From assembly GCA_041674285.1 (NCBI GenBank), contig JBAYVZ010000001.1, positions 165,129 to 229,128 on the forward strand: 64,000 nucleotides of DNA, read 5' to 3'. Numbering within the stretch: the first letter of the stretch is position 1; every line of letters begins with the position of its first letter. Under the pieces are notes generated by a model. That model saw nothing but the letters and a program-made list of their open reading frames with translations, ran no database searches and had not been told where the DNA came from. The position numbers and the translations under genes are program-made. Shown here one piece after another: positions 11,120 to 44,214 of the stretch. The DNA is from Minisyncoccota bacterium (GTDB lineage Bacteria; Patescibacteriota; Minisyncoccia; Phycocordibacterales; UBA9973).

Positions 11120-11237
11120 CCCATTAGAAGTAGATAATCTTTAGATTATCGTACATTATTTAACTAATAATATCGAATATAAATAATTTTTTTAAATAGA
11201 CCCCGTGTTAAAACAACATATATGACTTCTAACGGGA
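11120..11237 (+). repeat. TIR-bounded intergenic element, subtype 2 (copy A), 118 bp
   Basis: Begins CCCATTAGAAG, directly abutting the rplI start codon (CAT on the plus strand), and ends CTTCTAACGGGA. It contains the hairpin GATAATC-ttta-GATTATC. It is nearly identical to the copies at 13980 and 31095 (the latter reverse-complemented). Confidence 0.85.
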
Positions 11238-11286
11238 TTCATATATAGAATATAACACTATAAAATACCTCATGCAAATACCAATA

Positions 11287-11313
11287 CAAAAGGCCCCCAA
11301 GGGGCCTTTTGTA
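11287..11313. terminator. Hairpin terminator downstream of ctpA
   Basis: AAAAGGCCCC-caa-GGGGCCTTTT. Confidence 0.7.
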
Positions 11314-11315
11314 TA

Positions 11316-12542
11316 TTAATTACCTTTTAATATCTCTACTGCTTTATCTAGCTGGGGATCTTTTTTTTCTAGAATATCTTTAGCTGTGATAGGAACCACA
11401 TGATCAGGAGTAAGACCCTTCTCAGATATAGAGTCACCATTAGGGGTGAGCCATCGAGCTATTGTGACTTTTAATGATGTATCTTTTGTTATCTCGACGA
11501 CCTCCTGCACAGAGCCTTTTCCGAAAGTTTTTTCTCCTACGATAACAGCCACACCATTTTGCTGCAAAGCCCCAGCGAGTATCTCAGACGCAGAAGCGGA
11601 GCCTCCATCTACAATAATAGCCAATTTTAATTCATCAGTAAAAACTTTTGGTCCACGACTTTTTATTACATCAGGCTTTCTCTTTTCTCCATAATCCTCC
11701 GTAACAATAACCTTACCAGCATCTAAAAACCAATTAGAGATATTTACAGCAGAATCTAGATATCCACCAGGGTTACCTCGCAAGTCTACAACTAGCTTGT
11801 CGTATTTAGTCTTGCTAAATTCTAGTAATGCTTGACGGAATAATTCTGCAGAATTTTCAGAGAAACTATATAGACTTATAATGAACACTCCATCTTCGCG
11901 AGCTTCTGTATCTATCGTAGGTATCTCTATCGTGTCACGAGTGATAGACACATCCCTAGGAGACTTCTCACCCTTGCGATAAATGTTTAAGACAACATCA
12001 GTACCCTTTTCCCCTCGTATCAAACTTATAGCCTTGTCTACTGTCATATCGGTTGTATCAACTTTATCTATTTTAAGTATTTTATCTCCAGATTTCAATC
12101 CTACCTTAAAAGCAGGAGTATCCCTCAGCGGTGCTACTATTGTCAGAATTTTGTCTTTTATACCAATCTCTGCTCCGATACCACCAAATGATCCATGTAT
12201 GCTATCACTAAATAGCTTGCTCTCTTCTGGTGGAAAGAAAACAGTATAGGGGTCGCCTAGTGACGAGGCTAAGCCTTGCACTGCACCCCATACTTTTTCT
12301 TGGTCTGTCTTCTTGTTTGCATATATAGATTTTTCATTTATCTTTTGCCATACTTTCCAAAAAGGCGCAAAATCTGCATTTGTAGACACAGTGGAATCTG
12401 TAGTATTAGAAATATTTATTACTGGTAAAATTTCTGGCTGTTGTTTTTTACCAAAGAAATATCCTCCCCAGAATACACCGACTACTAACACGAAAGAAGC
12501 TATTGTGAAAAAATATTTCGAATTTAATTTTATTTGTTTCAT
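11316..12542 (-). CDS. ctpA: Carboxyl-terminal processing protease (S41 peptidase with PDZ domain)
   Basis: N-terminal TM anchor, PDZ domain (GLKSGDKILKID), S41 motifs (NPGGYLDSAV, DGGSASASEILAG) and TFGKGSVQ. Confidence 0.85.
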   Translation of the reverse strand: MKQIKLNSKYFFTIASFVLVVGVFWGGYFFGKKQQPEILPVINISNTTDSTVSTNADFAPFWKVWQKINEKSIYANKKTDQEKVWGAVQGLASSLGDPYTVFFPPEESKLFSDSIHGSFGGIGAEIGIKDKILTIVAPLRDTPAFKVGLKSGDKILKIDKVDTTDMTVDKAISLIRGEKGTDVVLNIYRKGEKSPRDVSITRDTIEIPTIDTEAREDGVFIISLYSFSENSAELFRQALLEFSKTKYDKLVVDLRGNPGGYLDSAVNISNWFLDAGKVIVTEDYGEKRKPDVIKSRGPKVFTDELKLAIIVDGGSASASEILAGALQQNGVAVIVGEKTFGKGSVQEVVEITKDTSLKVTIARWLTPNGDSISEKGLTPDHVVPITAKDILEKKDPQLDKAVEILKGN

Positions 12543-12551
12543 TGAATTTTA

Positions 12552-13760
12552 TTAATTTTGTAGCTTGAGAGCTTTTGGTGTATAGACATTCTTGGGATCC
12601 CATAACATCCAAGAAGTGACCCCTATCTTTTCTGAACTATCTATTTGAGCTCGAACTAGACTCTCTGTATATGTAGCACCCATATCAAAGTCTTGTAACC
12701 AAGGACGAATTTTTGATTTTGGTAGGCCCATAGCTTCTGTTTTCTTTATGGCACCTAGTATTGAATTGTTTATTACAGTACCAGGATTGGCTGCAGGATT
12801 TTTCAATCCATATTGACCTGCTGGATAATGAGATGGGTACACCATAGGGGCTATGTAGTCGAAGTGTGGTATTATCTTTTCCCATATCTGACCTATGCCC
12901 ATATCATCTTTTGCCTCAGTAGTCAGACCAAATACATCAGCGGAGGTGATTATATTATTTTCTTTTTTGACTTCAGAATTTAGGCTGGAGAAAAATTTCT
13001 CTAGGTTGTCAGAGCGAGTAGTACCTTCTTTTAATTTATAATTTATATCTTTCATATTTCCATCAGAAGGATATCTAATATAATCAAAATTTATCTCATC
13101 AAATCCTATAGCATACGAAGCCTTTGCTATTGCTACTGTATAATGCAGTACTTCTTCTTGGGCAGGATCTAGAAACGATAAACCCTTTCTATCTTTCCAC
13201 ACTTTACCATCACTCTTGCGAGTTATAGCCCACTCTGGTTTTTTGGAAGTTAAGTATGAATCTTGAAATACAGATACACGACCAATTACGTATATATTTT
13301 TCTTATGCAAATCTTCTATAAATGTATCCATATCTCGCACACGATTCTCCACGGAGCCTAATTCCGTAATAAATGGGTCAGCTGTTTTAAAAGACACACG
13401 ACCAGTAGCATCTTTTATATCTATAACTACAGCATTCAGTTCTGTTGTGTCTATTATGTCGACGAGCTTTGACCTACGACTAGGAACTCCAGCTATCCAA
13501 CTGGACATATAAAGAGCTTTTACTTGATCTGGGGTAGAGATATGAGTAGCGATCCTAGGCACTACCTCATCAGACAATACAGATACAGGATCTAAGCCTG
13601 GAGCGGACTCTGAATTCGAGGCAATATTTAGGTTATCATTGAGATTACTAGGTGAATCTTTCTTACTAAAAACAAAAAGATACAAGAAAAAACAAACCAG
13701 CACAAAAACAAACATCATGATGAAATTTCTAAAATGTTTTTTCTTGATTATTATTGTCAT
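12552..13760 (-). CDS. Membrane-anchored putative glycoside-hydrolase-like TIM-barrel protein (DUF4015/GHL-like); tentative
   Basis: N-terminal TM helix, then about 340 aa with alternating beta/alpha character and conserved acidic residues (DEINFDYIRYP). The family assignment is from memory and is not strong. Confidence 0.35.
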   Translation of the reverse strand: MTIIIKKKHFRNFIMMFVFVLVCFFLYLFVFSKKDSPSNLNDNLNIASNSESAPGLDPVSVLSDEVVPRIATHISTPDQVKALYMSSWIAGVPSRRSKLVDIIDTTELNAVVIDIKDATGRVSFKTADPFITELGSVENRVRDMDTFIEDLHKKNIYVIGRVSVFQDSYLTSKKPEWAITRKSDGKVWKDRKGLSFLDPAQEEVLHYTVAIAKASYAIGFDEINFDYIRYPSDGNMKDINYKLKEGTTRSDNLEKFFSSLNSEVKKENNIITSADVFGLTTEAKDDMGIGQIWEKIIPHFDYIAPMVYPSHYPAGQYGLKNPAANPGTVINNSILGAIKKTEAMGLPKSKIRPWLQDFDMGATYTESLVRAQIDSSEKIGVTSWMLWDPKNVYTPKALKLQN

Positions 13761-13763: not shown

Positions 13764-13979
13764 TTATTGATTAGGATTGTTGCTATCTACAAATGGCTGC
13801 ATGTTGTTTTCTTCTGAATATATTCTCCTTTTTGCATTTCGGTAAAAATGGTAACCAACAAAAGAAACAAGTAAACCCAAAATGCTTATTAATAGTGACC
13901 TAAAAAAACTAGGGATTCCCATGTAAGGCAAAATAGCGATTAATATTCCTACGATTAAAAGTATGCGTTCTTTTCTCAT
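13764..13979 (-). CDS. Small 2-TM membrane protein (71 aa, hypothetical)
   Basis: Two hydrophobic helices. Its start codon abuts the terminus of element copy B. Confidence 0.4.
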   Translation of the reverse strand: MRKERILLIVGILIAILPYMGIPSFFRSLLISILGLLVSFVGYHFYRNAKRRIYSEENNMQPFVDSNNPNQ

Positions 13980-14098
13980 CCCGTTAGAAGTAGATAATCT
14001 TTAGATTATCGTACATAAATTAAATAATAATATCGAATATAAATATTTTCTTAAAACAAAATCCGTAGCTTGAATGACATATATGACTTCGCACGGGA
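13980..14098 (+). repeat. TIR-bounded intergenic element, subtype 2 (copy B), 119 bp
   Basis: Begins CCCGTTAGAAGTAGATAATCTTTAGATTATCG and ends in the degenerate CTTCGCACGGGA. It is collinear with copy A and with the reverse complement of copy G. Confidence 0.85.
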
Positions 14099-14121
14099 CT
14101 CATTATTTGATTATAAACTAT

Positions 14122-15425: not shown

Positions 15426-16838
15426 TTAAGCGAGGAGTTCCTTTAGAATCTTTTGGACTAGAGCTGGGTTAGCTGATCCTTTAGTTTCTTTCATAATCTG
15501 TCCTACTAGTGACATCAGTGCATTCTCCTTGCCACCTTTGTACGTAGCGACGACTTGAGGATTCGCATCGATGATCTTTTGTGCGATTTCCTTTAATGCA
15601 CCTTCATCATTCTTCTGTATCAAATCTTTTTCTGTAGCAATCTTCATCGGTGATTCATCTGCGATTACAATCATAGCTAGGATATCCTTTGCTGCGCGAG
15701 ATGAGATAAGACCATCTGTAGTCATACGAATCAATTCTGCAAAGTGCTCGTTGTTCGGTAGATTTATCTCTGGATTGGATTTCTTCAGTCCTAGGTAGTC
15801 TGAGGTGATATAGTTTGAAGCAGTCTTGATCTGCTCAGGGCCATTTAGTTTTGCCGCCACTCCTTCGAACCATTCAGCCAATTTCATATCTCCTACATAA
15901 CTCTCAATATCTTCATCTTTGATGCCATAGTCCTTTTGATATCGAGCACGCTTTGCACTCGGTAGCTCTGGTAGATCATCGCGTAGTTCTTGCATATTGA
16001 ACATCTTGCTCAGATAGAATTTTGGGATATCTGGATCTGGGAAATATCTGTAGTCATCGGCAGTCTCCTTTCTACGCTGAGAGAAAGTCTTTTGCTTTGC
16101 ATCATCCCATCCACGAGTCTCTTTTACTATCTCTTCAATCTTGCCTGCTTCTATTAGGTCTATCATGCGCTTTTGTTCGTAGATAGCAGCACGTTCAGCT
16201 GATTTGAATGAAGCAATATTTTTCACTTCTACTGGTATACCGAATAAATCCTTCTCAGTAGATACAGAGATATTCACCTCGACACGCATCTGACCTTTTT
16301 CCATATTTGCATCTGACACACCGAGATATCGTAGTAGCATCTGTAGCTCTTTTGCAAAATTTCCGATCTGCTCAATGTCATGTATCACAGGCTCGGTCAC
16401 TAGCTCCATGAGCGGCACTCCAGCACGATTGAAATCTACCAGAGATCCATCTGCACTGTGGGATGATGTCGCTGTATCCTCCTCGAGGTGTACACGAGTG
16501 ATATCCACCCCTGCCAATTTACCACCTTTGACTATTGGGTATTTATATTGTGAAATCTGATATGCTTTTGGAATATCTGGATAAAAGTAGTTTTTACGGT
16601 CAAATTCAGTGAAATCGGAAACTTCCCCATCTATAGCCATTCCTACGCGTACGACGCTCTCTATGGCCTTTTTATTACATACTGGGAGGGTTCCTGGGTG
16701 GGCCATACATACTGGGCATACGTTGTAATTTGGGTGATTTTCCTCGGGATCGTTCTTGCACCCGCAAAACATCTTGGAGACTGTATTCAGCTCCGCATGA
16801 ATTTCAAGACCTATTGTTGTGTAGTATTTCTGTGACAT
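15426..16838 (-). CDS. gatB: Asp-tRNA(Asn)/Glu-tRNA(Gln) amidotransferase subunit B
   Basis: N-terminus YTTIGLEIHAELNT...KMFCGC. The full-length GatB/GatE fold is followed by a C-terminal YqeY-like helical domain. Confidence 0.9.
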   Translation of the reverse strand: MSQKYYTTIGLEIHAELNTVSKMFCGCKNDPEENHPNYNVCPVCMAHPGTLPVCNKKAIESVVRVGMAIDGEVSDFTEFDRKNYFYPDIPKAYQISQYKYPIVKGGKLAGVDITRVHLEEDTATSSHSADGSLVDFNRAGVPLMELVTEPVIHDIEQIGNFAKELQMLLRYLGVSDANMEKGQMRVEVNISVSTEKDLFGIPVEVKNIASFKSAERAAIYEQKRMIDLIEAGKIEEIVKETRGWDDAKQKTFSQRRKETADDYRYFPDPDIPKFYLSKMFNMQELRDDLPELPSAKRARYQKDYGIKDEDIESYVGDMKLAEWFEGVAAKLNGPEQIKTASNYITSDYLGLKKSNPEINLPNNEHFAELIRMTTDGLISSRAAKDILAMIVIADESPMKIATEKDLIQKNDEGALKEIAQKIIDANPQVVATYKGGKENALMSLVGQIMKETKGSANPALVQKILKELLA

Positions 16839-17988: not shown

Positions 17989-18912
17989 TTATAGATTTTC
18001 TCTCATCCTGTTAACTAGCTGTAAGAGTATTTGAGATCTCTCAGCCAATGAATTCATCGCGTATCTTAATTCTTTAATCTTATCCTCCATTTCCGGGTCT
18101 TCGATTTCTATTGATAATTTACTTGCATCCTCTTGTAGTGAGTTTGAAAAACGTCTAACTCCATAAGCAAGTTTTTCTAAATTTTCACTGCTTTCTTTAA
18201 ATGAAGATCCTCTTAATATCTGAATTTCCTCAAACATAACAGCCAATCTATTGATCTGATTTGTAAGACTAGATACGGATTCTGGACCAAAAGCTGAATC
18301 AAAATTTTGCAATTTTTTAATACCAGAGACCATCATATGAAATCTGTCGCTATCCTGTATTTGAGTTAGACCTTGTTGTTGTCTTTCGTAGAGAGCATCC
18401 AGCATTGTCTTAGAATTTAGAGATATATCTTCTGTGGCGTCTTTTAATTTATTTTCAATAATTTTATTTTCTTCATTCTTTCTAGATTCTTTAAATTCTA
18501 AGACCTTTGCATCCAAGCTTTCTTTTACTTGTTTCAATTTTTCAATGGAGTCCATTTCCGTCTTGACTGATGGAGGTAATTCATCAGAAACAGGCAATCC
18601 CAATTCAATTCGAACTTGATTTAATTTATCCTGAGTATCTTTAACTACTTCACTTTTTCTTTCAATCCCCTGATCTGTCTTTTCTGTCTTTGTCGCAAGA
18701 TAAGCCAAAAAACTAGCTCTATCTTCATCTTCGTTTTTTATTTCTTGCTTTTCAGGACTTACATTTTCAACTTCAACTTTTTTGCTAGAAAAAGTATCAT
18801 CAAAACCACCATCTTTTTCAAAAGTTTTTTCATCGTTTGATTTTTCAGATTGATCAGCTACTCTCTCTGCTCCACCAGAAGGTCTCCCCCGAAACATTTC
18901 ATTATTTGCCAT
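17989..18912 (-). CDS. Acidic coiled-coil protein (hypothetical, 307 aa)
   Basis: Glu/Lys/Asp-rich sequence with long predicted helices. No motif recognised. It lies upstream, on the same strand, of a small TM protein and an M23 peptidase. Confidence 0.4.
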   Translation of the reverse strand: MANNEMFRGRPSGGAERVADQSEKSNDEKTFEKDGGFDDTFSSKKVEVENVSPEKQEIKNEDEDRASFLAYLATKTEKTDQGIERKSEVVKDTQDKLNQVRIELGLPVSDELPPSVKTEMDSIEKLKQVKESLDAKVLEFKESRKNEENKIIENKLKDATEDISLNSKTMLDALYERQQQGLTQIQDSDRFHMMVSGIKKLQNFDSAFGPESVSSLTNQINRLAVMFEEIQILRGSSFKESSENLEKLAYGVRRFSNSLQEDASKLSIEIEDPEMEDKIKELRYAMNSLAERSQILLQLVNRMRENL

Positions 18913-20628: not shown

Positions 20629-22110
20629 CTATTTTGTTAAAATTTGAATTGCTGACTTCAATCTCTCTATTGTTTCCTTTTTACCCAATATTTCCATCAG
20701 CATAAATGGGTCTGGGGATTTATCTCTACCTGATAGAGCATATCGTATAGGCCAGAGAATATCGCCTCTACCCACTTCCTCGGCGTATGGCCAGATAGAT
20801 TCCTTTATAAAGTCTTTATTGAAATTCTCTTCTAGGATCCCGTCTACGATAATTATAGATTTATCAAGATATGATGCTAGTATTTCATATTTATTCTCTT
20901 GTGGAATTTTTGATGATTTAAAGAATAATACATCTTTTTCGTATACAGGCTTACCAAAATAGTAGACGAGCTCTCCAGCGAGAGCCATCGTCTCCACATC
21001 TAGGCCTTTGCTCACTCTATCTATAACTACAGGAGTTATATTGTGGACTATTTCATTTGAAAAACCAGGTAGACCCTTGATAGACTCTGGTATAAATTTC
21101 AAAATATACTCCTCTTGATCTTCATAAGAAAGTTTTTTCAAATACTCTTTATTTAGCCAATCCAATTTTTCATCATTGAATTGTGCTCCAGATTTCTGAA
21201 TACGTGAGATATCAAATTCATTGGCTATTTCAGATGCGGACATCACCTCTCTATCGTCACCAGGATTCCACCCTAGGAATGCCAAGAAGTTCACCATAGT
21301 CTCTGGCAAGTATCCCTCTTTTCGGTAGTCTAATATATCTTTGGCTCCGTCTCTCTTACCGAGCTTTTTATTTCCACCAGTGGCCATGATGGGTGGCAGT
21401 GTAGCAAAAATAGGTGGCACGATATCGAGTCCTTCATATATAGACAGGAATTTGGGAGTAGAAGATATGAATTCTTGGCCACGCATGACATGAGTCACAC
21501 CCATCTCTATATCGTCTACTATGTGTGCAAAGTTATATGTAGGATATCCATCCCCTTTGATTAGTATGATATCGTCGAGTGCTTCCTCTCCAGCAGAAAG
21601 ATCACCAAATACTAGATCGTACCATTCATACCTCTTTATATTTGGGACTTTGAATCGTAGAGGTGCCCTGCCGTCCCACTCTTTATCGTGGTCTGGTCTA
21701 TGCTCTCTATACAGGAATGGTCTCTTTTCTTCTTCAGCTTTTTGGCGAAATACAGCTACCTCTTCCTCTGTATAAGGATCAGGGTAGGCTAGACCTTTTT
21801 CTAGTAATTTCATCGCATATTTTTTATACAAATCCAATCTTTGTGATTGTATATATGGAGCATGTGGACCATCTATACCAGGACCCTCATCCCAATCTAT
21901 ACCTAGCCATTTTAGAGATTCAAAAATATGCTCGATTGAACCTGATACTTCTCGCTCTTTGTCTGTATCCTCGATGCGCAGGATAAAAGTACCATTGTTC
22001 CTCTTTGCCCATAGATAGGCGAACAATGCGGTACGAACATTTCCCACATGCATAAAACCTGTAGGTGAAGGAGCAAAACGTGTAACTATTTTTTTATTAT
22101 CTGTATTCAT
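20629..22110 (-). CDS. gltX: Glutamyl-tRNA synthetase
   Basis: Class I HIGH-region variant (VTRFAPSPTGFMHVGNVRTALF). The length and C-terminal anticodon-binding domain fit GltX. The related glutaminyl-tRNA synthetase is possible but less likely, given gatB is present. Confidence 0.85.
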   Translation of the reverse strand: MNTDNKKIVTRFAPSPTGFMHVGNVRTALFAYLWAKRNNGTFILRIEDTDKEREVSGSIEHIFESLKWLGIDWDEGPGIDGPHAPYIQSQRLDLYKKYAMKLLEKGLAYPDPYTEEEVAVFRQKAEEEKRPFLYREHRPDHDKEWDGRAPLRFKVPNIKRYEWYDLVFGDLSAGEEALDDIILIKGDGYPTYNFAHIVDDIEMGVTHVMRGQEFISSTPKFLSIYEGLDIVPPIFATLPPIMATGGNKKLGKRDGAKDILDYRKEGYLPETMVNFLAFLGWNPGDDREVMSASEIANEFDISRIQKSGAQFNDEKLDWLNKEYLKKLSYEDQEEYILKFIPESIKGLPGFSNEIVHNITPVVIDRVSKGLDVETMALAGELVYYFGKPVYEKDVLFFKSSKIPQENKYEILASYLDKSIIIVDGILEENFNKDFIKESIWPYAEEVGRGDILWPIRYALSGRDKSPDPFMLMEILGKKETIERLKSAIQILTK

Positions 22111-22227
22111 CCCGTTAGAGATAGGAAATGTTTACATTTCCGTATATTTTTAATTTTAGTAAATAATACGACTTATGTTTATATAATACTTAATGTTAGA
22201 GATAAAACAAACAAATCTCTAACGGGA
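22111..22227 (+). repeat. TIR-bounded intergenic element, subtype 1 (copy C), 117 bp
   Basis: CCCGTTAGAGATAGGAAATGTTTACATTTCC ... ATCTCTAACGGGA. The left terminus directly abuts the gltX start codon. Internal hairpin GGAAATG-ttta-CATTTCC. Confidence 0.85.
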
Positions 22228-23368: not shown

Positions 23369-23417
23369 AGTATTAGTATAGCTTATTTTTAAAAATTTGA
23401 AAAATAACAAACAAAAA

Positions 23418-23450
23418 CTGCTTAAAGCAATTTTTGTTTGCTTTAAGCAG
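23418..23450. terminator. Hairpin terminator between the 166-aa gene and murG
   Basis: CTGCTTAAAGCAA-tttttgttt-GCTTTAAGCAG. Confidence 0.55.
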
Positions 23451-23951
23451 TTAATAATCTTTCCCAAAGTCAGGTTGTGTACCGTATGTCGGATAGGAAT
23501 TATGTCTTTCCTGTTCTTCCCTACTACTATAGAGTAAATCTCTAAATTCATCGGCTTGTTCACTACGCCTTACTTTGTGTTCTTCTTCCATTTTAAATTT
23601 CTCTTCCTTCATCCACAAAAGTGCACCTTTGAGTAATTTATACTCTGAATGTTTTTTGTTCTCAAAAAAATCTCGATGGATCATATACTCATTTAGATTT
23701 TCAGCAGAAACAAATGCTTTCTGGAAAAGTTTAAAATTCCTCCAACAATAAATCATAGCCAGAATCTTTACAGTAATAACTTCGGGGATAGGGCAATTAT
23801 TTTCTTTTAAATAATTGAACACAATATCTTTGTTATGTTCTATGGGGTAGATACTCATCCTACCGTACATATCATCCATAACAACTTTATTCAAATGTTC
23901 AACATTAAAATCAAATCTACCTATTTTTAAAATTTGGTTTTCATTTTTCAT
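23451..23951 (-). CDS. Hypothetical protein (166 aa) inserted in the dcw cluster
   Basis: ORF only. Basic/acidic C-terminal tail. No motif recognised. Confidence 0.4.
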   Translation of the reverse strand: MKNENQILKIGRFDFNVEHLNKVVMDDMYGRMSIYPIEHNKDIVFNYLKENNCPIPEVITVKILAMIYCWRNFKLFQKAFVSAENLNEYMIHRDFFENKKHSEYKLLKGALLWMKEEKFKMEEEHKVRRSEQADEFRDLLYSSREEQERHNSYPTYGTQPDFGKDY

Positions 23952-24050: not shown

Positions 24051-24548
24051 TTACTTGATTGTATACCCTTTTGCTAGTTTAAAAGTTTTAAAATTCTCAT
24101 TCAATTTTATCTCTTTTACGTATTTCTTAAAATCCTCTGGAAGTGGAGATGGACCCACCCATACACTACGTTGGATCATAATAAAATGAAATTGTCTCAG
24201 TTCCCTTCGGAACCAATTCCTAGCTGAAGTTTGATTGTCTGGTATGTCATAAATGATCAACAAGTCTTTAGGATCTTTATCTGTTTTTTCTGTTGAAAAT
24301 TTTTTAAAAACAATCTTTTCTTTTGATTTTAAAAACTTCTCGCCCAGCTGTGTTATAGAATATACACCGTTTAACTCTTTTATGTATCCTTTACTCTTTA
24401 GGCCAGAGCACCTACTAGCCAGAGTTTGATGTTTATAATATTTAAAATCAGGTAAACCCAAAAACCCTGTCTTGACGCCTTTATAACTAACAAATTTTTT
24501 GTTTTTATTTTTACTTAAATATTTTAGAATTTCTCTCTCTATACTCAT
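24051..24548 (-). CDS. Winged-helix DNA-binding domain fused to a Cas2-like / PaaX-C-like domain (putative regulator); tentative
   Basis: The N-terminal ~70 aa are HTH-like (SYKGVKTGFLGLPDFKYY...GYIKELNGVYSITQLGEKFL). The C-terminal ~90 aa carry a Cas2-like beta-alpha-beta pattern (LLIIYDIPD ... ARNWFRRELRQFHF ... IQRSVWVG). Assignment is from pattern only. Confidence 0.4.
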   Translation of the reverse strand: MSIEREILKYLSKNKNKKFVSYKGVKTGFLGLPDFKYYKHQTLASRCSGLKSKGYIKELNGVYSITQLGEKFLKSKEKIVFKKFSTEKTDKDPKDLLIIYDIPDNQTSARNWFRRELRQFHFIMIQRSVWVGPSPLPEDFKKYVKEIKLNENFKTFKLAKGYTIK

Positions 24549-25731: not shown

Positions 25732-25848
25732 CCCGTTAGAGATAGGAAATGTTTACATTTCCGTATATTTTTAATTTCTAGTAAATAATACGACTTTATT
25801 TTTTAAACAACCGTAGTTAGAGATAAAACAAACGCATCTCTAACGGGA
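25732..25848 (+). repeat. TIR-bounded intergenic element, subtype 1 (copy D), 117 bp
   Basis: CCCGTTAGAGATAGGAAATGTTTACATTTCCGTATATTTTTAATTTCTAGTAAATAATACGACTT ... CATCTCTAACGGGA. It abuts the ftsW start codon and is >85% identical to copy C. Confidence 0.85.
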
Positions 25849-29583: not shown

Positions 29584-29700
29584 CCCATTAGAGATAGGAA
29601 ATGTTCACATTTCCGTATATTTTTAATTTCTATTAATAATACGACTTAATTTTTTAAAACAATTTACGTTAGACATCTTACAAGCACATCTCTAACGGGA
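29584..29700 (+). repeat. TIR-bounded intergenic element, subtype 1 (copy E), 117 bp
   Basis: CCCATTAGAGATAGGAAATGTTCACATTTCC ... ATCTCTAACGGGA, 40 bp from the aspS start. Its right terminus abuts the stop codon of the 70-aa ORF. Confidence 0.8.
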
Positions 29701-29913
29701 CTAGTGTATATATTGAGGAATCTGTTCACATGGATACCCTATCATAAAAGTCAGACCTACTAGTATCCAATAAAATGGGGCAAAAGCAAAATAGATCACT
29801 TTGTCATTTTTCCACATTGGTAGATACCATTTTTGGACTTTCATAAATAGCATAGACAAAGGTATGTTTATGACATTTAAAAGTATGAGTACAATACTAA
29901 GGAAGAATTTCAT
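29701..29913 (-). CDS. Small 2-TM membrane protein (70 aa) exactly filling the gap between element copies E and F
   Basis: Two hydrophobic helices. The start codon abuts the copy F terminus and the stop codon abuts the copy E terminus. Coding status is uncertain. Confidence 0.3.
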   Translation of the reverse strand: MKFFLSIVLILLNVINIPLSMLFMKVQKWYLPMWKNDKVIYFAFAPFYWILVGLTFMIGYPCEQIPQYIH

Positions 29914-30030
29914 CCCGCTTAGAAGCAGATCGCGATCAGCTCGCTTTTTTGCTTGATTATATTAATAATATTTTTAAAGCTTTTTTCCATATTTTTGTTT
30001 TTTAAATTGCGATCGCGGCTTCTAACGGGA
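29914..30030 (+). repeat. TIR-bounded intergenic element, subtype 3 (copy F), 117 bp
   Basis: CCCGCTTAGAAGC ... GCTTCTAACGGGA. The termini match the family but the interior is different and GC-richer, with palindromes GATCGCGATC and GCGATCGC. Confidence 0.7.
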
Positions 30031-30039
30031 TTCATATAA

Positions 30040-30984: not shown

Positions 30985-31094
30985 ATATATGAATAATAGC
31001 AAAAAACCAAAACTTTTGCACATTTAGTCCACAGTTTTATCCCATTTTGTCTGTTTGCGATATTTTGACGGATTGATAGAATACATAACATGGT

Positions 31095-31213
31095 CCCGTT
31101 AGAAGTCATATATGTCATTCAAGCTACGGAGACTGTTTAAATAAATTATTTATATTCGATATTATTAGTTAAATTATGTACGATGATCTAAAGATTATCT
31201 ACTTCTAACGGGA
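31095..31213 (-). repeat. TIR-bounded intergenic element, subtype 2 (copy G), 119 bp, inverted relative to copies A/B
   Basis: Reverse complement of the copy A/B sequence. Its right terminus CTTCTAACGGG-ATG supplies the nucleotides immediately preceding, and overlapping, the dnaB start codon. Confidence 0.85.
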
Positions 31214-32619
31214 TGGCTATCAAAAAAGAAAATCTCAGAGTCCCTCCACAGAGTGTGGATTCAGAAAAAGCAGTCCTCGGATCTATCATGCTCCGACCTG
31301 GTGCAATACACGAAATCACAGATATTATAAACAGTGATTCTTTTTATGCTGGCAAACATGCTCAGATCTGGAATATCATGAATGAGCTCTCTGCAAAGGG
31401 TGATCCTATCGACCTAATCTCTGTATCACACAGACTAGGCGAAAAAGGCATGATTGATCAGGTGGGTGGTATCGGGTATTTATCTGAATTGACTAATGCA
31501 GTCCCCGCTTCTACAAACATCCGCCACTATGCAGATATAGTAAATAAAAAACATGTACTCCGAAAAGTTATTGAAGCTGGATCAGATATTTCTGAACTCG
31601 GTTTCAAAGAAGACATTGAAGATATCCTAGATGTAGTGAATCAGGCGGAGAAGCGCATCATGGGTGTGGGCGGATTCTCAAAAGGCAAAACATTCCAATC
31701 TCTAAAAGAATCCCTACCCGAGGCTTGGGAGCGCCTAGAAAAGCTCCACGAGAACAAGGGTATGCTCCGCGGTGTTCCTACAGGATTCCGAGATCTCGAC
31801 AATCTACTATCTGGTTTTCAAAAGTCTGACCTAGTCATCCTCGCTGCCCGTCCATCTGTCGGTAAGACAGCCTTTGCTCTGAACATCGCTCGTCATGCAG
31901 CGTCCAAGCACCAGATACCTACAGTCATTTTCTCACTAGAAATGGGAACTCAGCAGCTAGTAGACAGAATGCTCGCCGCTGATGCCAATGTGAATGCTTG
32001 GAATTTGCGAACTGGAAATATCTCTGCAGAGAGTGAATTTTCAAAGATTCGCGACTCCCTAGACAAACTAGCCAAGGCTCCGATCTTTATCGATGATATC
32101 GCCGGAAATACTATCGGCCGTATGCGCTCTGTATGCCGTCGTGTGCACGCCGAGCATGGTATAGGATTAATATTAGTCGACTACCTACAGCTGATGTCTA
32201 CAGCAAAGAGTTATGATAATATGGTGAACCAAGTAACTGAAATATCTCACTCTCTCAAGGCTCTAGCCAAAGAGTTCGACGTGCCAGTCATCGCCCTATC
32301 TCAGCTATCTCGTGCTGTGGAGCAGCGTGGGGGCAAGCCTCGATTATCTGACCTCCGTGACTCTGGATCTATCGAGCAGGACGCCGACGTCGTGATGTTC
32401 ATCCACCGAGAAGACAAAGGTAAAGATGAGAGTGAGCGTACAAATATCGCCGAGATACTAGTGGAAAAGCACAGAAATGGACCAGTGGGTCATGTACAGC
32501 TATACTTTGATGATAAACTAGGTGCATTCCTAGACCTTGAAAAAGGCAACCTAAATGGCTTTGCGGCAATGGCAAATTCCCAAATATCATCCCCTCAAAA
32601 TGGATTGGATGGATTTTAA
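31213..32619 (+). CDS. dnaB: Replicative DNA helicase DnaB
   Basis: N-terminal DnaB domain (PPQSVDSEKAVLGSIM) and RecA-like domain with Walker A (ARPSVGKTAFALNIA). Confidence 0.93.
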   Translation: MAIKKENLRVPPQSVDSEKAVLGSIMLRPGAIHEITDIINSDSFYAGKHAQIWNIMNELSAKGDPIDLISVSHRLGEKGMIDQVGGIGYLSELTNAVPASTNIRHYADIVNKKHVLRKVIEAGSDISELGFKEDIEDILDVVNQAEKRIMGVGGFSKGKTFQSLKESLPEAWERLEKLHENKGMLRGVPTGFRDLDNLLSGFQKSDLVILAARPSVGKTAFALNIARHAASKHQIPTVIFSLEMGTQQLVDRMLAADANVNAWNLRTGNISAESEFSKIRDSLDKLAKAPIFIDDIAGNTIGRMRSVCRRVHAEHGIGLILVDYLQLMSTAKSYDNMVNQVTEISHSLKALAKEFDVPVIALSQLSRAVEQRGGKPRLSDLRDSGSIEQDADVVMFIHREDKGKDESERTNIAEILVEKHRNGPVGHVQLYFDDKLGAFLDLEKGNLNGFAAMANSQISSPQNGLDGF

Positions 32620-32627
32620 TTATGAAT

Positions 32628-32746
32628 CCCGTTAGAGATGTGCTTGTCATATTTCTAGTATTGGGTAACATATAAAGATTAAGTCGTATTATTTACTAAA
32701 AAATTAAAATATACGGTAATGTAAACATTACCTATCTCTAACGGGA
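32628..32746 (-). repeat. TIR-bounded intergenic element, subtype 1 (copy H), 119 bp, inverted relative to copies C/D/E
   Basis: CCCGTTAGAGATGTGCTTGT ... GGTAATGTAAACATTACCTATCTCTAACGGG-ATG. Its right terminus abuts the recR start codon. Hairpin variant GGTAATG-taaa-CATTACC. Confidence 0.85.
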
Positions 32747-33354
32747 TGAATCAAATAGAAATACTCGCACAACTTTTCAAGGAATTTCCAGGTATTGGTG
32801 AAAGACAAGCCAAGCGTTTTGTGTATTTCCTACTCCACAAAAATCCTACATACATCCGCGAGCTCAGTGATGCGATAGTCGCAGTCAAAAATACAATAAA
32901 GCAATGTCCCTCATGCTACCTATTCTTTCAGTCTGAGCGCGACAGTCTATGTGATACATGTCGTGATTCTAAGACAGACCATACTTCCCTATTGATTATC
33001 GAAAAAGATGCAGATTACGAGAGTATTAAAAAGAGTAAGAATTATAGTGGGATGTATTTCATCCTAGGCGGATTGATACCTATAGTCACAAAAGATACAC
33101 CCAATTTTGTCCGAGTAAATGAATTGATGAGAGTGATTGAGAATAGATTTAAAAATGAAGGACTAAAAGAAATAATTATTGCCCTATCGCTGAATCCTCA
33201 AGGAGAAAACACTGACACATATATCCGTGAATTACTAAATAGTTATGATGGCAAGATCAAGATATCGAGCCTAGGCCGTGGACTATCCACAGGTTCAGAG
33301 CTCGAATACGCCGACAGTGAGACAATAAAAAACGCCCTTAGGAATAGGTCATAA
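32746..33354 (+). CDS. recR: Recombination protein RecR
   Basis: HhH motif (FPGIGERQAKRFVYFLL), C4 zinc finger (CPSCYLF...CDTC) and a Toprim domain. Confidence 0.9.
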   Translation: MNQIEILAQLFKEFPGIGERQAKRFVYFLLHKNPTYIRELSDAIVAVKNTIKQCPSCYLFFQSERDSLCDTCRDSKTDHTSLLIIEKDADYESIKKSKNYSGMYFILGGLIPIVTKDTPNFVRVNELMRVIENRFKNEGLKEIIIALSLNPQGENTDTYIRELLNSYDGKIKISSLGRGLSTGSELEYADSETIKNALRNRS

Positions 33355-39413: not shown

Positions 39414-39833
39414 TTATTTCTTTTTATTAACCTTTACTTCTTCGACTACAGGAATAACTATTTCTTCTTCTGCAGGCTCCGGGACCACGCATACCTCGCC
39501 TGCGATATCTTCTTCTGTACACTCAGTCTTTTCCGCCTGTATCGCTCCGGACTCTATAGCTGAAGTACAATCTTCATTTACACAAGCAGAAAAATCACGA
39601 GCTTTGATCGTGTATTGATTATAATAAGACAAATTATTTGGAGGACATTCTCCGTCTATGGAGCAGTCTCGATAGAAGCAAGTTTCTTTTGTATTATCAC
39701 AAGCAGTATCGACTATAAAATTATAGTCTTTTTTGAAATAGAAAAAATAAAAAGAAGTAGCGATAACAACAGCACAACTTATTAATAATATATAGAGAAA
39801 TACATTATGACTTTTTGGTTCTTCTTCAGGCAT
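39414..39833 (-). CDS. Membrane-anchored Cys-rich small protein (139 aa, about 10 Cys, acidic tail)
   Basis: N-terminal TM helix followed by a C-x-n-C-rich segment (CDNTKETCFYRDCSIDGEC ... CVNEDC). Confidence 0.4.
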   Translation of the reverse strand: MPEEEPKSHNVFLYILLISCAVVIATSFYFFYFKKDYNFIVDTACDNTKETCFYRDCSIDGECPPNNLSYYNQYTIKARDFSACVNEDCTSAIESGAIQAEKTECTEEDIAGEVCVVPEPAEEEIVIPVVEEVKVNKKK

Positions 39834-41198: not shown

Positions 41199-41513
41199 TT
41201 ATTTAGTCAGCTTAATTCCATTAATCTTGATGAACCAATTGATCGCTTTTTTAGCGATTGGTTTTAAAAATGGAGCAATTTCTAAAATAGAAGCACCAGG
41301 CCTCCCTAAGAAACTGTAATAAGCACGAATAAACAAAATTTTACCTTTTTCGGTTCCTTGGGCCAAAATTTTATCTCTCCAAACTCTCAATGAATCTGTA
41401 ATATAATCATCCTGCCCGTAACAAGCAGTAACTACAAAACATTTAAAATTTGGACTAAAATTAGGTCCATCATTAGAAACTAAAGGTTTTTTTTGTTTTT
41501 CAACCTCTTTCAT
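41199..41513 (-). CDS. Hypothetical protein (104 aa)
   Basis: ORF only. Confidence 0.3.
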   Translation of the reverse strand: MKEVEKQKKPLVSNDGPNFSPNFKCFVVTACYGQDDYITDSLRVWRDKILAQGTEKGKILFIRAYYSFLGRPGASILEIAPFLKPIAKKAINWFIKINGIKLTK

Positions 41514-43068: not shown

Positions 43069-43167
43069 ATGAGTATATTATATCACACAAATAAAATACT
43101 ATAATTTTGACAAAAAAATATTTCAGGATATAATGCGCAAAAACCCACAATTTAATATAAAAAACCA

Positions 43168-43989
43168 ATGAAAGAGTATTTTGTAATTGAAGGACAAAAT
43201 GAAGGTCCTACTAGTGTGATTATGGCAGGTATTCATGGCAATGAACCTTGCGGAGTAAGAGCTTTTAAAAAGCTAGAACACAAATTAAAGATCAAGTCAG
43301 GAAAAGTAATTTTTCTTTTAGGTAATCCTGTTGCCCTGAAAGACAACGTTCGATTTGTTGAACAAAACATGAATCGAATGTTTGCCGAGCAAAACAAGGA
43401 GTACACAGAAGAAGAGAAAAATTCCTACGAGTACCGCAGGGCACAATTCATCAAAATGTTCTTAGATGAAGCAGATGCCCTGTTAGACATCCACTCCACA
43501 CGAAACAAAAGTCTTCCATTTGTTTTTACAGAAGGCAATGCTTTTGATATCGTAAATTATTTCCCAAAAGAAGTTTCCCGTATCGTTATAAACATAAACG
43601 AATACGAACCAGGTGGCACTGATGGGTACATGTACGAGAAAGATAAAATTGGTATTTGTATTGAGTGTGGTCAACACGACAGCAAAAATGCTGACAAAGT
43701 AGCCATAAAGTCCATAATGATTTTCCTGCAAAAACGCGGGCATATAAAAGATTCTACAAAGAAAAAATTACCAAAAGAAATTGTTATGGTAAATAGTATT
43801 TATTTTACGAAGACAGACAATTTCAAAATGGCAAAACAATTTGTAGATTTTGAAAAAATCAAAATGGATCAATTAATAGGCACAGACGGCAATGAAGAAA
43901 TCCGGGCAAAACAAAAAGGATTAATCATGTTTGCTCATGATTGCGACAAGATCGGATCTGAAGCATTCTTGATGACTAAAAAGATATAA
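43168..43989 (+). CDS. Succinylglutamate desuccinylase / aspartoacylase-family zinc hydrolase (AstE/AspA, M14-like)
   Basis: The motifs GIHGNEPCG and LDIHST match the family's Zn-binding His/Glu and downstream His. Confidence 0.65.
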   Translation: MKEYFVIEGQNEGPTSVIMAGIHGNEPCGVRAFKKLEHKLKIKSGKVIFLLGNPVALKDNVRFVEQNMNRMFAEQNKEYTEEEKNSYEYRRAQFIKMFLDEADALLDIHSTRNKSLPFVFTEGNAFDIVNYFPKEVSRIVININEYEPGGTDGYMYEKDKIGICIECGQHDSKNADKVAIKSIMIFLQKRGHIKDSTKKKLPKEIVMVNSIYFTKTDNFKMAKQFVDFEKIKMDQLIGTDGNEEIRAKQKGLIMFAHDCDKIGSEAFLMTKKI

Positions 43990-44010
43990 AAGCCAAATGA
44001 TTAAATTTAG

Positions 44011-44046
44011 CACCCCATAAAGAGAATTCTTTATGGGGTGTTTTTA
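44011..44046 (+). terminator. Rho-independent terminator
   Basis: CACCCCATAAAGAGAATTCTTTATGGGGTG followed by TTTTT. Confidence 0.75.
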
Positions 44047-44098
44047 TTGCAAAACAATAGTATTTTGATACAATGCTTTTATCTATATGGGATAGTAT

Positions 44099-44214
44099 CC
44101 CGTTAGAGATGTGTTTGTTATTTTTTTAATCTTGGAACAATAAAAGAAAAAGTCGTATTTTTAATATAAATTAATCAGATACGGAAATGTAAACATTTCC
44201 TATCTCTAACGGGA
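44099..44214 (-). repeat. TIR-bounded intergenic element, subtype 1 (copy I), 116 bp, inverted
   Basis: CCCGTTAGAGATGTGTTTGT ... ACGGAAATGTAAACATTTCCTATCTCTAACGGG-ATG. Its right terminus abuts the arginase-family start codon. Confidence 0.85.

Follow-up and report, generated by a model that had tools for sequence, protein, structure and literature searches.

The nine repeats in the window, the 64-kb stretch of DNA analysed here, are best explained as non-autonomous mini copies of a compact cassette of the Patescibacteria (CPR), mobilised by a nuclease and compatible with host-gene expression through translational coupling, a combined reading to which we give a probability of about 0.6. The cassette is transposon-like, ~280 bp long and found across the Patescibacteria, and its coding capacity is confined to a tiny GIY-YIG nuclease. 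No earlier description of such a start-codon-targeting cassette, or of its mini copies, was found in the literature.

Start-codon elements in the window and beyond

Between 11.1 and 44.2 kb of the window are nine repeats of 117–120 bp each (Table 1). Allowing at most one mismatch, TCCCGTTAGARA has 16 matches in the window, 15 of which are element termini, against 0.49 expected from shuffles, and an nhmmer profile made from the nine copies recovers the same nine and no others. Both searches bear out the count given in an earlier, sequence-only reading, the left coordinates of which were all 1 nt too high; the corrected spans start 1 nt lower. The elements are bounded by terminal inverted repeats (TIRs), as that reading held, albeit of effectively 13 bp (TCCCGTTAGAnnn/nnnTCTAACGGGA) rather than 12 bp, with positions 11–13 variable yet still complementary. 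Its three interior subtypes and its hairpin with a 7-bp stem and 4-nt loop are recovered as described. Two of its statements on copy E are corrected here: the copy is not oriented differently, its hairpin lying on the side of the aminoacyl-tRNA synthetase (aaRS) gene as in copies C and D, and the gene, named aspS before, is AsnS-like (451 aa, tRNA-synt_2 and OB fold) and not a long AspS.

On the gene-distal side of copies A, B, D, F, G and H stands a duplicated start (ATGAA, ATGAG or ATGG), which the sequence-only reading had missed. The duplicate upstream of copy I is degenerate (ATAGTA versus ATGGTA), and copy C has no recognisable target duplication. The codon at the copy E junction is AAG in the window and ATG in the sibling contig L120, which differs from the window by 3 SNPs over 8.6 kb, so that in L120 all nine copies adjoin a start codon. 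The gene-proximal repeat of copy F contains a 1-nt bulge. Contigs L121, L126 and L127 end inside the copy H element.

Table 1. Elements of the window, their host genes and the duplicated starts.
Feature	Position	Strand	Description
Copy A	11119–11237	−	Subtype 2; gene-proximal repeat 11119–11131, linker 11132, P2 hairpin 11133–11150
Copy A host gene (rplI)	10676–11119	−	ATG begins with the last base (A) of copy A
Copy A target-site duplication	11238–11242	−	ATGAA, duplicated rplI start; opens uORF MNPVRSHICCFNTGSI-stop
Copy B	13979–14098	−	Subtype 2; P2 hairpin 13993–14010; gene-distal repeat degenerate (TCCCGTGCGAAG)
Copy B host gene (71-aa membrane ORF)	13764–13979	−	ATG adjoins copy B
Copy B duplicated start	14099–14103	−	ATGAG
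Copy C	22110–22227	−	Subtype 1; P2 hairpin 22124–22141; adjoins gltX ATG (20629–22110)
Copy D	25731–25848	−	Subtype 1; P2 hairpin 25745–25762
Copy D host gene (FtsW/RodA family)	24628–25731	−	ATG adjoins copy D
Copy D duplicated start	25849–25853	−	ATGAA
Copy E	29583–29700	−	Subtype 1; P2 hairpin 29597–29614; adjoins AsnS-like aaRS gene (28228–29583)
Copy F	29913–30030	−	'CGCG' class; long-range pairing beside the terminal stem replaces the local hairpin
Copy F host gene (conserved 70-aa membrane ORF)	29701–29913	−	ATG adjoins copy F
Copy F duplicated start	30031–30035	−	ATGAA; 4 nt past the stop of the upstream tRNA-synt_1b gene
Copy G	31094–31213	+	Subtype 2; P2 hairpin 31182–31199; adjoins dnaB ATG (31213–32619)
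Copy G duplicated start	31090–31093	+	ATGG of dnaB
Copy H	32627–32746	+	Subtype 1; P2 hairpin 32715–32732; adjoins recR ATG (32746–33354)
Copy H duplicated start	32622–32626	+	ATGAA of recR; 2 nt past the dnaB stop codon
Copy I	44098–44214	+	Subtype 1; P2 hairpin 44183–44200; adjoins arginase-family ATG (44214–45104)

The nine repeats are very likely mobile elements, forming a dispersed family of MITEs targeted to start codons. Comparison of orthologous loci, as proposed in the sequence-only reading, revealed clean empty sites and target-site duplications: sites E, F and H are empty in L124, site H (recR) is also empty in L122, and site G lacks the element in L122 but has it in L124. At recR, L122 reads ...ggattttaatt-ATGAATCAAATAG with the element absent, and the window reads ...aattATGAA-element-TGAATCAAATAG. 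In the flanks, ATGNN precedes the element and TGNN follows it, where the element's terminal A makes up the missing base of the ATG. Among the matches listed, the identity between the 5′-flank suffix and A plus the 3′-flank prefix is exactly 5 nt long for 82 of 119 elements, 4 nt for 7 and 6 nt for 3, with A-T-G-R-R as the consensus of the target duplication. Insertion duplicates a 4-bp target TNNR, overwhelmingly the TGRR of a start-codon ATGRR; since A is the last base of the repeat, the junction on the gene side is ...CTAACGGG-ATG-RR, which restores the host ORF in full, and a second copy of the start codon remains at the gene-distal end. Elements with CCCC/GGGG termini have plain 4-bp duplications (TTCA, TTTA, TCAA and TTAG). 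Tandem and nested copies are present, the same start codon having been hit repeatedly.

The same termini recur in at least 119 genome stretches of GTDB genomes, nearly all of them from Patescibacteria. In 120 of the 141 elements among the matches listed (85%), the terminal A is the first base of an ATG that leads into an ORF of 50 codons or more. With the hairpin end on the gene side counted as forward, 87 elements are forward and 6 reverse among the matches listed, and the nuclease ORF or its remnant is nearly always directed at the host gene. Within the window, orientation tracks gene direction on both sides of the strand switch at 31 kb, where the sign of the GC skew is unchanged. Empty sites, ATG-containing duplications and the occupancy of gene starts together uphold what the sequence-only reading had offered as its second option, a MITE with a strong insertion preference for gene starts.

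The probable parent cassette and its mini copies

Full-length relatives of the elements (275–286 bp) carry a GIY-YIG nuclease ORF of 83–89 codons between matching repeats, in the order 13-bp TIR, spacer of ~5–10 nt, nuclease ORF and a second repeat overlapping the ORF end. Directed at the host gene, the ORF has its stop either 7 nt before the host ATG or overlapping it. In some cassettes it is in frame from the duplicated host ATG (M-x-PVRD...), and database proteins of 92 aa start with M[DN]PVRD; half of the full-length cassettes are without a recognisable duplicated ATG. GIY-YIG ORFs lie between the same repeats in L087 and L013, and cassette ORFs match Pfam PF01541 with E = 3.6e-16 and 1e-16. 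Metagenomes contain 44 distinct cassettes of 275–309 bp, 30 of them of the TCCC/GGGA type; of these 30, 20 adjoin the ATG of an ORF of at least 40 codons, and in 26 the nuclease stop is at −7 or +1, counted from the last base. The helix P2 is paired at 9 of 9 positions in 38 of the 44 cassettes, with compensatory variants (GGAAGCGCC/GGCGCTTCC, GGAAACGCT/AGCGTTTCC, GGAAGCGTT/AACGCTTCC and others); in the mini copies P2 is a 7-bp hairpin, again with many compensatory variants. No GIY-YIG gene was found within the window.

Positions 1–95 of the MITE profile are collinear with nucleotides 1–100 of the cassette and positions 96–119 with its last 24 nt, and the 118-bp copies therefore appear to be internal-deletion derivatives; on this alignment, descent from the GIY-YIG cassette is likely. 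The presumed deletion would have removed the ~155-nt loop of the conserved 9-bp long-range helix P2, leaving the 5′ ~100 nt, a loop of 3–4 nt and the 3′ ~24 nt.

That the GIY-YIG nuclease is the mobiliser of the elements we put at roughly even odds. It would move full-length and mini copies alike in trans, with the folded or paired termini (P1 and P2), not a long sequence, as its probable recognition feature. Enzymes of the GIY-YIG type act hydrolytically as nucleases, with 2-nt 3′ overhangs as their characteristic product (PMC2988022).

An ordinary DDE-transposon MITE, with the GIY-YIG gene as a passenger, the transposase located elsewhere and the start bias produced by purifying selection alone, is unlikely. 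Some 53–65% of the non-coding ATGRR sites in the window are already start codons, the enrichment could in part reflect target preference and purifying selection alone, and the targets of a small number of elements are not ATG (ATAAA, ACTGA and TATG-shifted). The combination of TIRs and a short target duplication is the signature of DDE transposition. We know of no GIY-YIG enzyme that performs strand transfer, which favours a DDE enzyme and counts against the nuclease as the source of the 4-bp duplication and precise joining. However, both the start occupancy of 85–90% and the 87:6 orientation bias among the matches listed exceed the null expectation, the repeated targeting of one start codon also argues against it, and ~0.9 Mb of loci contained no ORF of transposase size between these repeats. 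Nor does the nuclease look like a passenger, since its ORF spans the cassette from repeat to repeat, its end and the P2 pairing overlap the termini, and cassette length is fixed (275–286 bp).

Expression of the host genes

Judged from the geometry of the cassette, translational coupling may preserve host-gene expression, a proposal as open to doubt as to belief. The duplicated host start, keeping the host promoter, leaderless 5′ end or operon coupling, would drive translation into the element, where ATGNN and the 13-nt repeat would be read as six codons (M-x-P-V-R-D). The stop of the nuclease ORF is either a UAA in the 3′ repeat, 7 nt short of the host AUG, or a UGA that overlaps the AUG; a ribosome terminating there would accordingly open the terminal stem and start anew at the host gene. 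Re-initiation should work in CPR genomes because they have almost no Shine–Dalgarno (SD) sites and many leaderless genes. Of 116 target sites among the matches listed, just 6 have an SD-like motif, 46% lie within operons, and at 21–30% a −10 box is spaced as for a leaderless gene; genes of the window itself follow this pattern.

Of 119 mini copies among the matches listed, 32 keep an open uORF frame through the interior, versus 12–19 of 119 in control frames. Half of the elements among those matches with a length divisible by 3 (L%3=0), 20 of 40, have a uORF extending to the −7 UAA, and in-frame fusions are absent from the 21 elements with L%3=2. Only copy F among the nine window copies has a full coupling uORF, which runs from the duplicated ATG across the whole element and ends 8 nt before the host ATG. 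The other eight either have no uORF beginning at the duplicated start or have one that ends 43–75 nt before the host ATG, and coupling therefore cannot explain the present expression of their essential genes.

The sequence-only reading had preferred a promoter/5′-leader module, in which the element supplies an outward promoter and a leader hairpin and downstream transcription starts inside it; as the primary nature of the elements this is now improbable. It draws on the AT-rich interior with −10-like hexamers, on TATTAT after (A)GTCG/TTCGA in window subtypes 1 and 2, on weak sigma-70-like matches directed gene-ward in copies G and H, on an invariant AC|G at the foot of P2 that is compatible with a Y−1/R+1 start site, and on the promoters carried by other MITEs such as Correia (PMC10969869). 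No −10 hexamer at a fixed distance was found across 39 diverse copies, however, in which only T−8, A−6, T−3, A−2 and C−1 are conserved, weakly to strongly; promoter-like matches in the region number 33 versus 39.5 in shuffles, and the interior is homologous to the 5′ coding part of the nuclease gene, now decayed. Preceding the duplicated dnaB ATGG is a native promoter (TTTGCG-17-TAGAAT), and in two lineages both are conserved upstream of the filled G site, while the centre of the element diverged; the −10 box of the native promoter lies 7 nt from the ATGG copy in the window versus 6 nt from the ATG at the L122 empty site. At the operon-internal sites (~46% of those among the matches listed), read-through transcription is already at hand.

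Less probable still is that the P1 and P2 fold (~20 stacked bp) is a processed RNA element, either cleaved by RNase III or a different RNase or acting as a small ribozyme, so that an mRNA with its 5′ end at or near the AUG would be released and translated without a leader. In favour of this, strong folds are predicted (z = −3 to −5.6), P2 varies in a compensatory manner, leaderless starts are in use in the host, and CPR bacteria retain RNase III (PMC12641178), an enzyme that cuts Correia TIR stems in Neisseria mRNAs (PMC10969869). Against it, an Rfam search, ribozymes included, gave no match even at E ≤ 10, G-U pairs are not in excess over A-C mismatches (8 versus 6, and 10 versus 9), and each stem could just as well reflect structure at the DNA level or coding constraint in the parent cassette. 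As these counts carry no strand-specific signal, they do not distinguish RNA-level from DNA-level structure. In the modelled fold, occlusion of the AUG by a long-range stem is structurally plausible.

Comparison with known systems

Like the CPR mini copies, the Correia/NEMIS elements of Neisseria (~100–155 bp) are non-coding, multi-copy MITEs bounded by TIRs, with a short target duplication and a location mostly just upstream of genes; they are co-transcribed with the neighbouring gene and influence its expression, and their TIRs form an RNA stem (PMC10969869). They differ in having 26-bp TIRs, a TA target, no link to start codons and a range of one genus only, whereas the CPR elements have a 13-bp TIR, target the TGRR of ATGRR with the last base rebuilding the ATG, keep a fixed orientation relative to the gene, are superphylum-wide and have a nuclease-encoding parent.

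The free-standing GIY-YIG homing endonucleases of phage T4, the seg genes, resemble the CPR cassette in being small nuclease cassettes that lack a promoter and lie between conserved genes. Their expression depends on transcripts of the host, in many cases through start and stop codons that overlap or are coupled, and they are tolerated since the neighbouring genes stay undisrupted (PMC2988022). The seg proteins exceed 200 aa and have DNA-binding domains, and their genes lack TIRs and target duplications and spread via double-strand-break repair between homologous genomes. In contrast, the CPR cassette encodes a catalytic domain of ~85 aa only, has TIRs and a 4-bp duplication, adjoins many unrelated host genes and spawns non-coding mini copies. 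Closest among solved structures are single-domain GIY-YIG proteins of the UPF0213/YhbQ type (PDB 1ZG2, BH0048, E = 4e-8; PDB 1YWL, EF2693, E = 6e-3), which share the size and single-domain architecture of the cassette protein. Both are structural-genomics proteins of unassigned function, and we know of no report of this type as mobile or repeat-flanked.

REPINs are likewise short, hairpin-forming, non-autonomous dispersed repeats of many copies, thought to be mobilised in trans by a small nuclease-type gene; the RAYTs, unlike the GIY-YIG nuclease, are HUH/Y1 enzymes, and to our knowledge REPINs have no target duplication, lie mostly downstream of genes and bear no relation to start codons. Rickettsia palindromic elements are, as in the CPR, small, palindromic and mobile, and reduced genomes tolerate them within or beside essential genes. 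They are inserted in frame within ORFs and translated within the host protein, whereas the CPR elements lie outside the ORF and regenerate its start, with only some CCCC/GGGG variants fusing to host ORFs.

Insertion of the mini elements at start codons

The window holds nine mini elements of 117–120 bp (copies A–I, the 118-bp class). A profile built from the nine copies claimed in the sequence-only reading recovers exactly these nine in the window and nothing else; their true spans begin 1 nt to the left of the boundaries first assigned. The terminal motif TCCCGTTAGARA, allowing at most one mismatch, has 16 matches in the window where dinucleotide shuffles predict 0.49, and 15 of the 16 are element termini. 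When the copies are oriented with the hairpin (7-bp stem, 4-nt loop) at the 3′ end, it is that end that adjoins an ORF, and the host ATG takes its A from the last base of ...CTAACGGGA. The host genes include rplI, gltX, dnaB, recR, an FtsW/RodA-family gene, an arginase-family gene and two membrane ORFs of 71 and 70 amino acids. Copy E, thought at first to be differently oriented and to precede aspS, has the orientation of copies C and D and lies at a gene for an AsnS-like class-II synthetase. Between the window and its sibling contig L120 there are three differing positions over 8.6 kb; in the window the next in-frame ATG of the AsnS-like gene is 13 codons downstream of the junction, at 29544. 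The 70-aa membrane ORF that separates copies E and F is a genuine, conserved gene: contig L124, from a relative that has neither element, keeps it between its tRNA-synt_1b and AsnS-like genes. None of the nine window copies encodes a GIY-YIG nuclease gene, and the upstream reading frames (uORFs) that run from the duplicated start are short and unconserved, a full one occurring in copy F alone.

Read in the direction of the gene, most window copies are immediately preceded by ATGAA, ATGAG or ATGG, a repeat of the first bases of the downstream ORF. Empty sites were sought in related Paceibacterota/Nomurabacteria contigs located via RecR homologues. In contig L122 (RecR 89% identical) the dnaB–recR junction reads ...ggattttaatt/ATGAATCAAATAG, with the element absent, and the corresponding window junction reads ...aattATGAA(120 bp)TGAATCAAATAG; the dnaB site is also empty in L122. 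In L124 (82% identical) the recR, AsnS-like and 70-aa-ORF sites are empty and the dnaB site is filled, so occupancy is patchy among close relatives. These clean empty sites, with the duplications flanking the elements, answer in favour of mobility the comparison of orthologous loci that had been proposed from the sequence. Three contigs terminate inside copy H, as often happens where a repeat interrupts an assembly; the elements fragment metagenome assemblies, and they shift start-codon calls, as in the 92-aa 'MDPVRD...' forms of the nuclease described below and a 451-aa versus 438-aa call for an aminoacyl-tRNA synthetase.

Counting the element's A, the duplication is exact over 5 nt in 82/119 elements, over 4 nt in 7/119 and over 6 nt in 3/119 among the matches listed, with consensus A-T-G-R-R; decayed upstream start duplicates in the same matches are mostly ATA or GTG. 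Tandem arrays of elements (E) read ATGAA(E)TGAA(E)TGAA..., and in one case a mini element sits inside another, with the duplication CGAAG. Such tandem and nested copies show that sites of one kind are used repeatedly. Insertion takes place at TNNR, duplicates 4 bp and falls overwhelmingly on ATGRR starts, and the terminal A of the element regenerates the host ATG.

Coordinates and junctions of the elements and associated features (L-numbers denote contigs or loci from other genomes or metagenomes)
Feature	Position	Strand	Detail
Copy E junction codon	29581–29583		AAG in window, ATG in sibling contig L120; T/A difference at 29582
70-aa membrane ORF between copies E and F	29701–29913	minus	Ortholog at L124 1348–1560
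Tandem pairs at one start codon, with 4-nt duplicate between, and nested case	L073 5472–5711; L099 3562–3801; L118 6503–6721; L014 7673–7896; L054 2088–2232		
Head-to-tail element junction			...CTAACGGGA-TGAA-TCCCGTTAG...
Subfamily with compensatory repeat variants	L124 3476–3596; L147; L162; L168; L099 3562–3681		TCCCGTACGA.../...TCGTACGGGA
Nuclease cassette	L087		CCCCGTTAGAGAT-tattt-ATG...(83 codons)...GGCGCTTCC-T-ATCTC-TAA-CGGGG (stop, TAA)
Nuclease cassette	L013		ORF reads through ...TCTAACGGGA/TGAAAAAAATAAAAG; stops at TGA overlapping the ATG of the next gene

A scan of 185,579 species genomes for both termini 85–115 nt apart found termini pairs in at least 119 genome stretches. Nearly all among the matches listed are labelled Patescibacteria, the labels comprising Saccharibacteria, Paceibacterota, Kaiserbacteria, Wolfebacteria, Kazan and other Patescibacteria. 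Roughly 15–20 matches are expected by chance in the full 596 Gb (our own arithmetic), so the handful of non-CPR matches without a duplication or ATG (for example, locus L047) may be chance. Shorter forms of 32–81 nt exist too, and the viral contigs of IMG/VR contain no element matches.

In 120 of 141 elements (85%) among the matches listed, the terminal A opens an ATG with 50 or more codons behind it, a lower bound owing to truncated loci and to the use of UGA as a sense codon in some CPR lineages. A preference for the target sequence, combined with the loss of lethal intragenic hits, would by itself enrich for gene starts. ATGRR occurs in the window 629 times within genes, 31 times at gene starts, 8 of which are occupied by an element, and 28 times in nominally intergenic DNA (about 17 after subtraction of probable unlisted genes); on these counts the two effects alone predict ~53–65% of insertions at starts, against the 85–90% observed. 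The preference for gene starts, offered as an alternative from the sequence alone, is supported.

Elements are oriented with the hairpin end gene-ward by 87:6 among the matches listed (binomial p <1e-15, our own arithmetic), a ratio that symmetric termini alone would not yield. To either side of the strand switch at 31 kb, element orientation matches that of the genes, and GC skew remains negative across it, which argues against a replication-strand explanation. The cumulative GC skew of the window peaks near 8 kb, where the genes switch from plus to minus (1–9000 versus 9000–64000), consistent with a replication terminus-like switch nearby. The right end of the window is taken up by a very large ORF (2473 aa; 56528–63949, minus strand).

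The parent cassette and its deletion derivatives

Two longer repeat-bounded elements containing a small ORF are present in genome loci L087 and L013. Their ORFs are GIY-YIG catalytic domains (PF01541, E = 3.6e-16 and 1e-16), with the UPF0213 proteins 1ZG2 and 1YWL as the closest solved relatives. A metagenome scan with both proteins yielded 80 loci, 53 of them with both repeats by a strict pattern, and de-duplication left 44 distinct cassettes of 275–309 bp. Thirty are of the TCCC/GGGA type (275–286 bp), of which 20 adjoin the ATG of an ORF of at least 40 codons and a single one (L178) is reverse-oriented; in 10 of the 30 the nuclease ORF ends in a TAA lying 7 nt short of the host ATG, and in 16 it ends in a TGA that overlaps this ATG. 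The remaining 14, of the CCCC/GGGG type, have plain 4-bp duplications (TTCA, TTTA, TCAA, TTAG) and either precede starts by a few nucleotides or form fusions with host ORFs. The nuclease family numbers 374 proteins at E ≤ 1e-5, most of them 80–88% identical across CPR lineages. Members of 92 aa start with M[DN]PVRD, the in-frame translation of the duplicated host ATG, 2 further nt and the 5′ repeat, and 5 of the 10 cassettes with a duplicated ATG at −5 are open in frame.

Inserted within the leader-peptide codons of type-IV-pilin-like genes are CCCC...GGGG cassettes at L182 1486–1761, L183 1486–1761 and L204, with the junction ATGAAAAAAGGTTTTA/element/TTTACACTCATAGAG (..KGF/TLIELLV); the nuclease ORF runs in frame into the pilin body (219–261 codons), and prepilin peptidase cleavage between G and F could, speculatively, release both nuclease and pilin. 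Related small GIY-YIG genes without inverted repeats adjoin tRNA gene fragments or duplications (L012 2217–2543; L017 6522–6824), which suggests other mobile lifestyles for the same family.

Mini and full forms correspond at both ends. Positions 1–95 of the mini profile are collinear with cassette nt 1–100, comprising the repeat, a short leader and the opening ~27 codons as far as TTAC-GGAAGCGC, and positions 96–119 align with the last ~24 nt of the cassettes. In the cassette, the second helix (P2) is a 9-bp long-range helix with one arm in the L-R-K-R-L/F codons and the other in the final ORF codons; it is fully paired in 38/44 and covaries at four or more positions. Loss of the ~155-nt P2 loop from the cassette thus yields the mini form, and the cassette is its nuclease-encoding parent. 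From the deletion of this loop follow the hairpin, the invariant AC, the fixed length of ~118 nt, the inherited orientation and a relic of coupling. Among the matches listed, 32/119 mini copies have an open uORF frame downstream of the duplicated ATG, compared with 12–19/119 for control frames. Where the element length is a multiple of three, the uORF extends to the −7 UAA in 20 of 40; where the length leaves a remainder of two, in-frame fusion of the uORF was found in 0/21. The uORF peptides end in ...SYL, ...SYF or ...LTG, as the nuclease does.

The subfamily with compensatory repeat variants occurs on mini copies and nuclease-bearing cassettes alike. The TACG/CGTA repeats of the L124 copy might be taken for in-place compensatory evolution; as the variant is also carried by the nuclease cassettes L147, L162 and L168, it is a subfamily marker. 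Other repeat variants are GAACG/CGTTC and GTACA/TGTAC.

Element fold and host expression signals

The paired terminal repeats (P1) form a 13-bp stem, complementary at each position in 109–119 of 119 elements among the matches listed, and P2 begins after a single T past P1. In the hairpin class, P2 is a 7-bp hairpin preceded by a near-invariant AC, with many compensatory variants (GGAAATC/GATTTCC, GGTCGCC/GGCGACC, GATTGTC/GACAATC, GGAGGCG/CGCCTCC and others); in the 'CGCG' class, 28 elements including copy F among the matches listed, the P2 5′ arm adjoins the 5′ repeat instead. Predicted folds are strong (z = −3 to −5.6), and a terminal stem of, on a rough estimate, ~−18 kcal/mol is set directly on the AUG of housekeeping genes. 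Counts of G-U versus A-C mismatches in the stems show no asymmetry, giving no strand signal. Rfam 15 has no match at the gathering threshold anywhere in the window, and a relaxed cutoff of E ≤ 10, applied to 29.5–32.8 kb, likewise gave nothing for the elements.

A local partner with dG ≤ −8 is available to the gene-distal repeat in 43/113 elements and to the gene-proximal repeat in 7/113 among the matches listed, and this asymmetry is real. On nascent RNA, pairing with this partner (..ACGGGA) could leave the AUG-proximal strand unpaired. In alignment the partner falls within the region that codes for the nuclease N terminus, possibly at the Y-T-G codons, and may be coding sequence inherited from the nuclease ORF; as it sits in the nuclease coding region, we do not claim a 'decoy' hairpin function for the 5′ repeat.

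Among the matches listed, 46% of 116 target sites are operon-internal, with a same-strand upstream ORF ending within 45 nt; 21–30% have a TAnnnT box at leaderless spacing, and a Shine–Dalgarno-like motif is found at only 5%. Window genes are similar, with many showing TGnTAWAAT, 6–9 nt and then ATG. This extended −10 arrangement without Shine–Dalgarno precedes the ORFs at 15426–16838, 17989–18912, 24051–24548, 39414–39833, 46490–47512 and 47578–48138; the one clear AAAGGAG in the window belongs to 41199–41513. This suggests widespread leaderless mRNAs in the Paceibacterota-like genome of the window. Both lineages with a filled dnaB site retain the native promoter TTTGCG-17-TAGAAT along with the duplicated ATGG, while the element centre has diverged, which suggests that the host promoter is still in use.

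A fixed internal promoter was sought in the elements and not found: TATTAT is common to the window subtypes, a family-wide fixed −10 is lacking, and promoter-scan matches do not exceed those in shuffles. A role as intrinsic terminator is set aside, as the subtype 1 P2 hairpin scores solely on the antisense strand, owing to the A-tract before it, and the property is not family-general. A strong bidirectional terminator-like hairpin with a 15–17-bp stem lies elsewhere in the window, at 23416–23452, between converging or adjacent ORFs.

Proposed mechanism and relation to known systems

With a probability of about 0.45, we propose that the ~280-bp cassette represents a previously unrecognised class of prokaryotic transposable element. 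Its sole protein, a GIY-YIG nuclease of ~85 aa, would move the cassette itself and its 118-bp derivatives via their folded termini (P1 and P2), with insertion targeted to start sites. The duplicated host start would express the nuclease from host signals, and the nuclease stop at −7 or +1 would pass the ribosome to the host AUG by termination and re-initiation, unwinding P1; the Shine–Dalgarno-less, leaderless translation of Patescibacteria would permit this. The GIY-YIG protein has no separate DNA-binding domain, so recognition would probably be of the P1/P2 structure. GIY-YIG enzymes are hydrolytic, with 2-nt 3′ overhangs as the usual product (PMC2988022).

If the proposal, to which we give slightly less than even odds, is correct, a selfish element colonises essential genes (dnaB, rplI, gltX, ftsW and aminoacyl-tRNA synthetase genes) in ~1-Mb genomes without killing its host, and this tolerance is tied to CPR translation, with almost no Shine–Dalgarno sites and many leaderless genes. 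The cassette would be, to our knowledge, the smallest known protein-coding mobile element with inverted repeats and the first to target the start codon itself. CPR organisms are otherwise hard to manipulate genetically, and the nuclease with its 13-bp termini could serve as a start-codon-directed insertion tool for them.

The mini copies alone correspond to a MITE, as the sequence-only reading had offered in the alternative: they have terminal inverted repeats, target-site duplications, multiple non-coding copies, polymorphic sites and a longer relative with shared termini, which covers every sequence-level criterion for such elements. A conventional autonomous insertion sequence as their source finds no counterpart, solo repeats paired 150–4000 bp apart in 0.9 Mb of loci being neighbouring separate elements only; one candidate, at L106, consists of tandem and nested minis beside an unrelated ATPase gene. 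Elements of the IS200/IS605-derived PATE type, inserted by HUH enzymes, have subterminal hairpins, no terminal inverted repeats, no duplication and an orientation tied to the replication strand; here the inverted repeats are present, the duplication is proven by empty sites and orientation follows genes. Integron attC sites have the order R''(RYYYAAC)...R'(GTTRRRY) at the 3′ end of cassettes, the reverse of the order found here (GTTAGAG...CTCTAAC), and the elements lie at housekeeping 5′ ends in both chromosomal orientations. Bulge-helix-bulge or intron-like excision is dismissed because the flanks cannot pair.

In the open-access full-text literature we found no description of the repeat sequence or of a start-codon-targeted element of this kind; start codons and Patescibacteria are both absent from a 2024 review of prokaryotic MITEs. 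Functionally closest to the mini copies are the Correia/NEMIS elements, which lie upstream of genes and are co-transcribed, their inverted-repeat stems being cut by RNase III (PMC10969869); those have 26-bp inverted repeats, a TA target and Neisseria hosts, whereas the elements described here have 13-bp repeats, a TGRR target and CPR hosts. The parent shares with free-standing GIY-YIG homing genes a GIY-YIG nuclease (PF01541, E = 3.6e-16). Such genes have neither terminal inverted repeats nor duplications and spread only to the cognate allele, by break repair; the elements here combine inverted repeats and duplications with many unrelated target genes. The parent resembles the free-standing GIY-YIG genes of phage T4, which lack promoters and are translationally coupled (PMC2988022), and differs from them in its inverted repeats, its target duplication, its possession of the catalytic domain only and its many unrelated targets.
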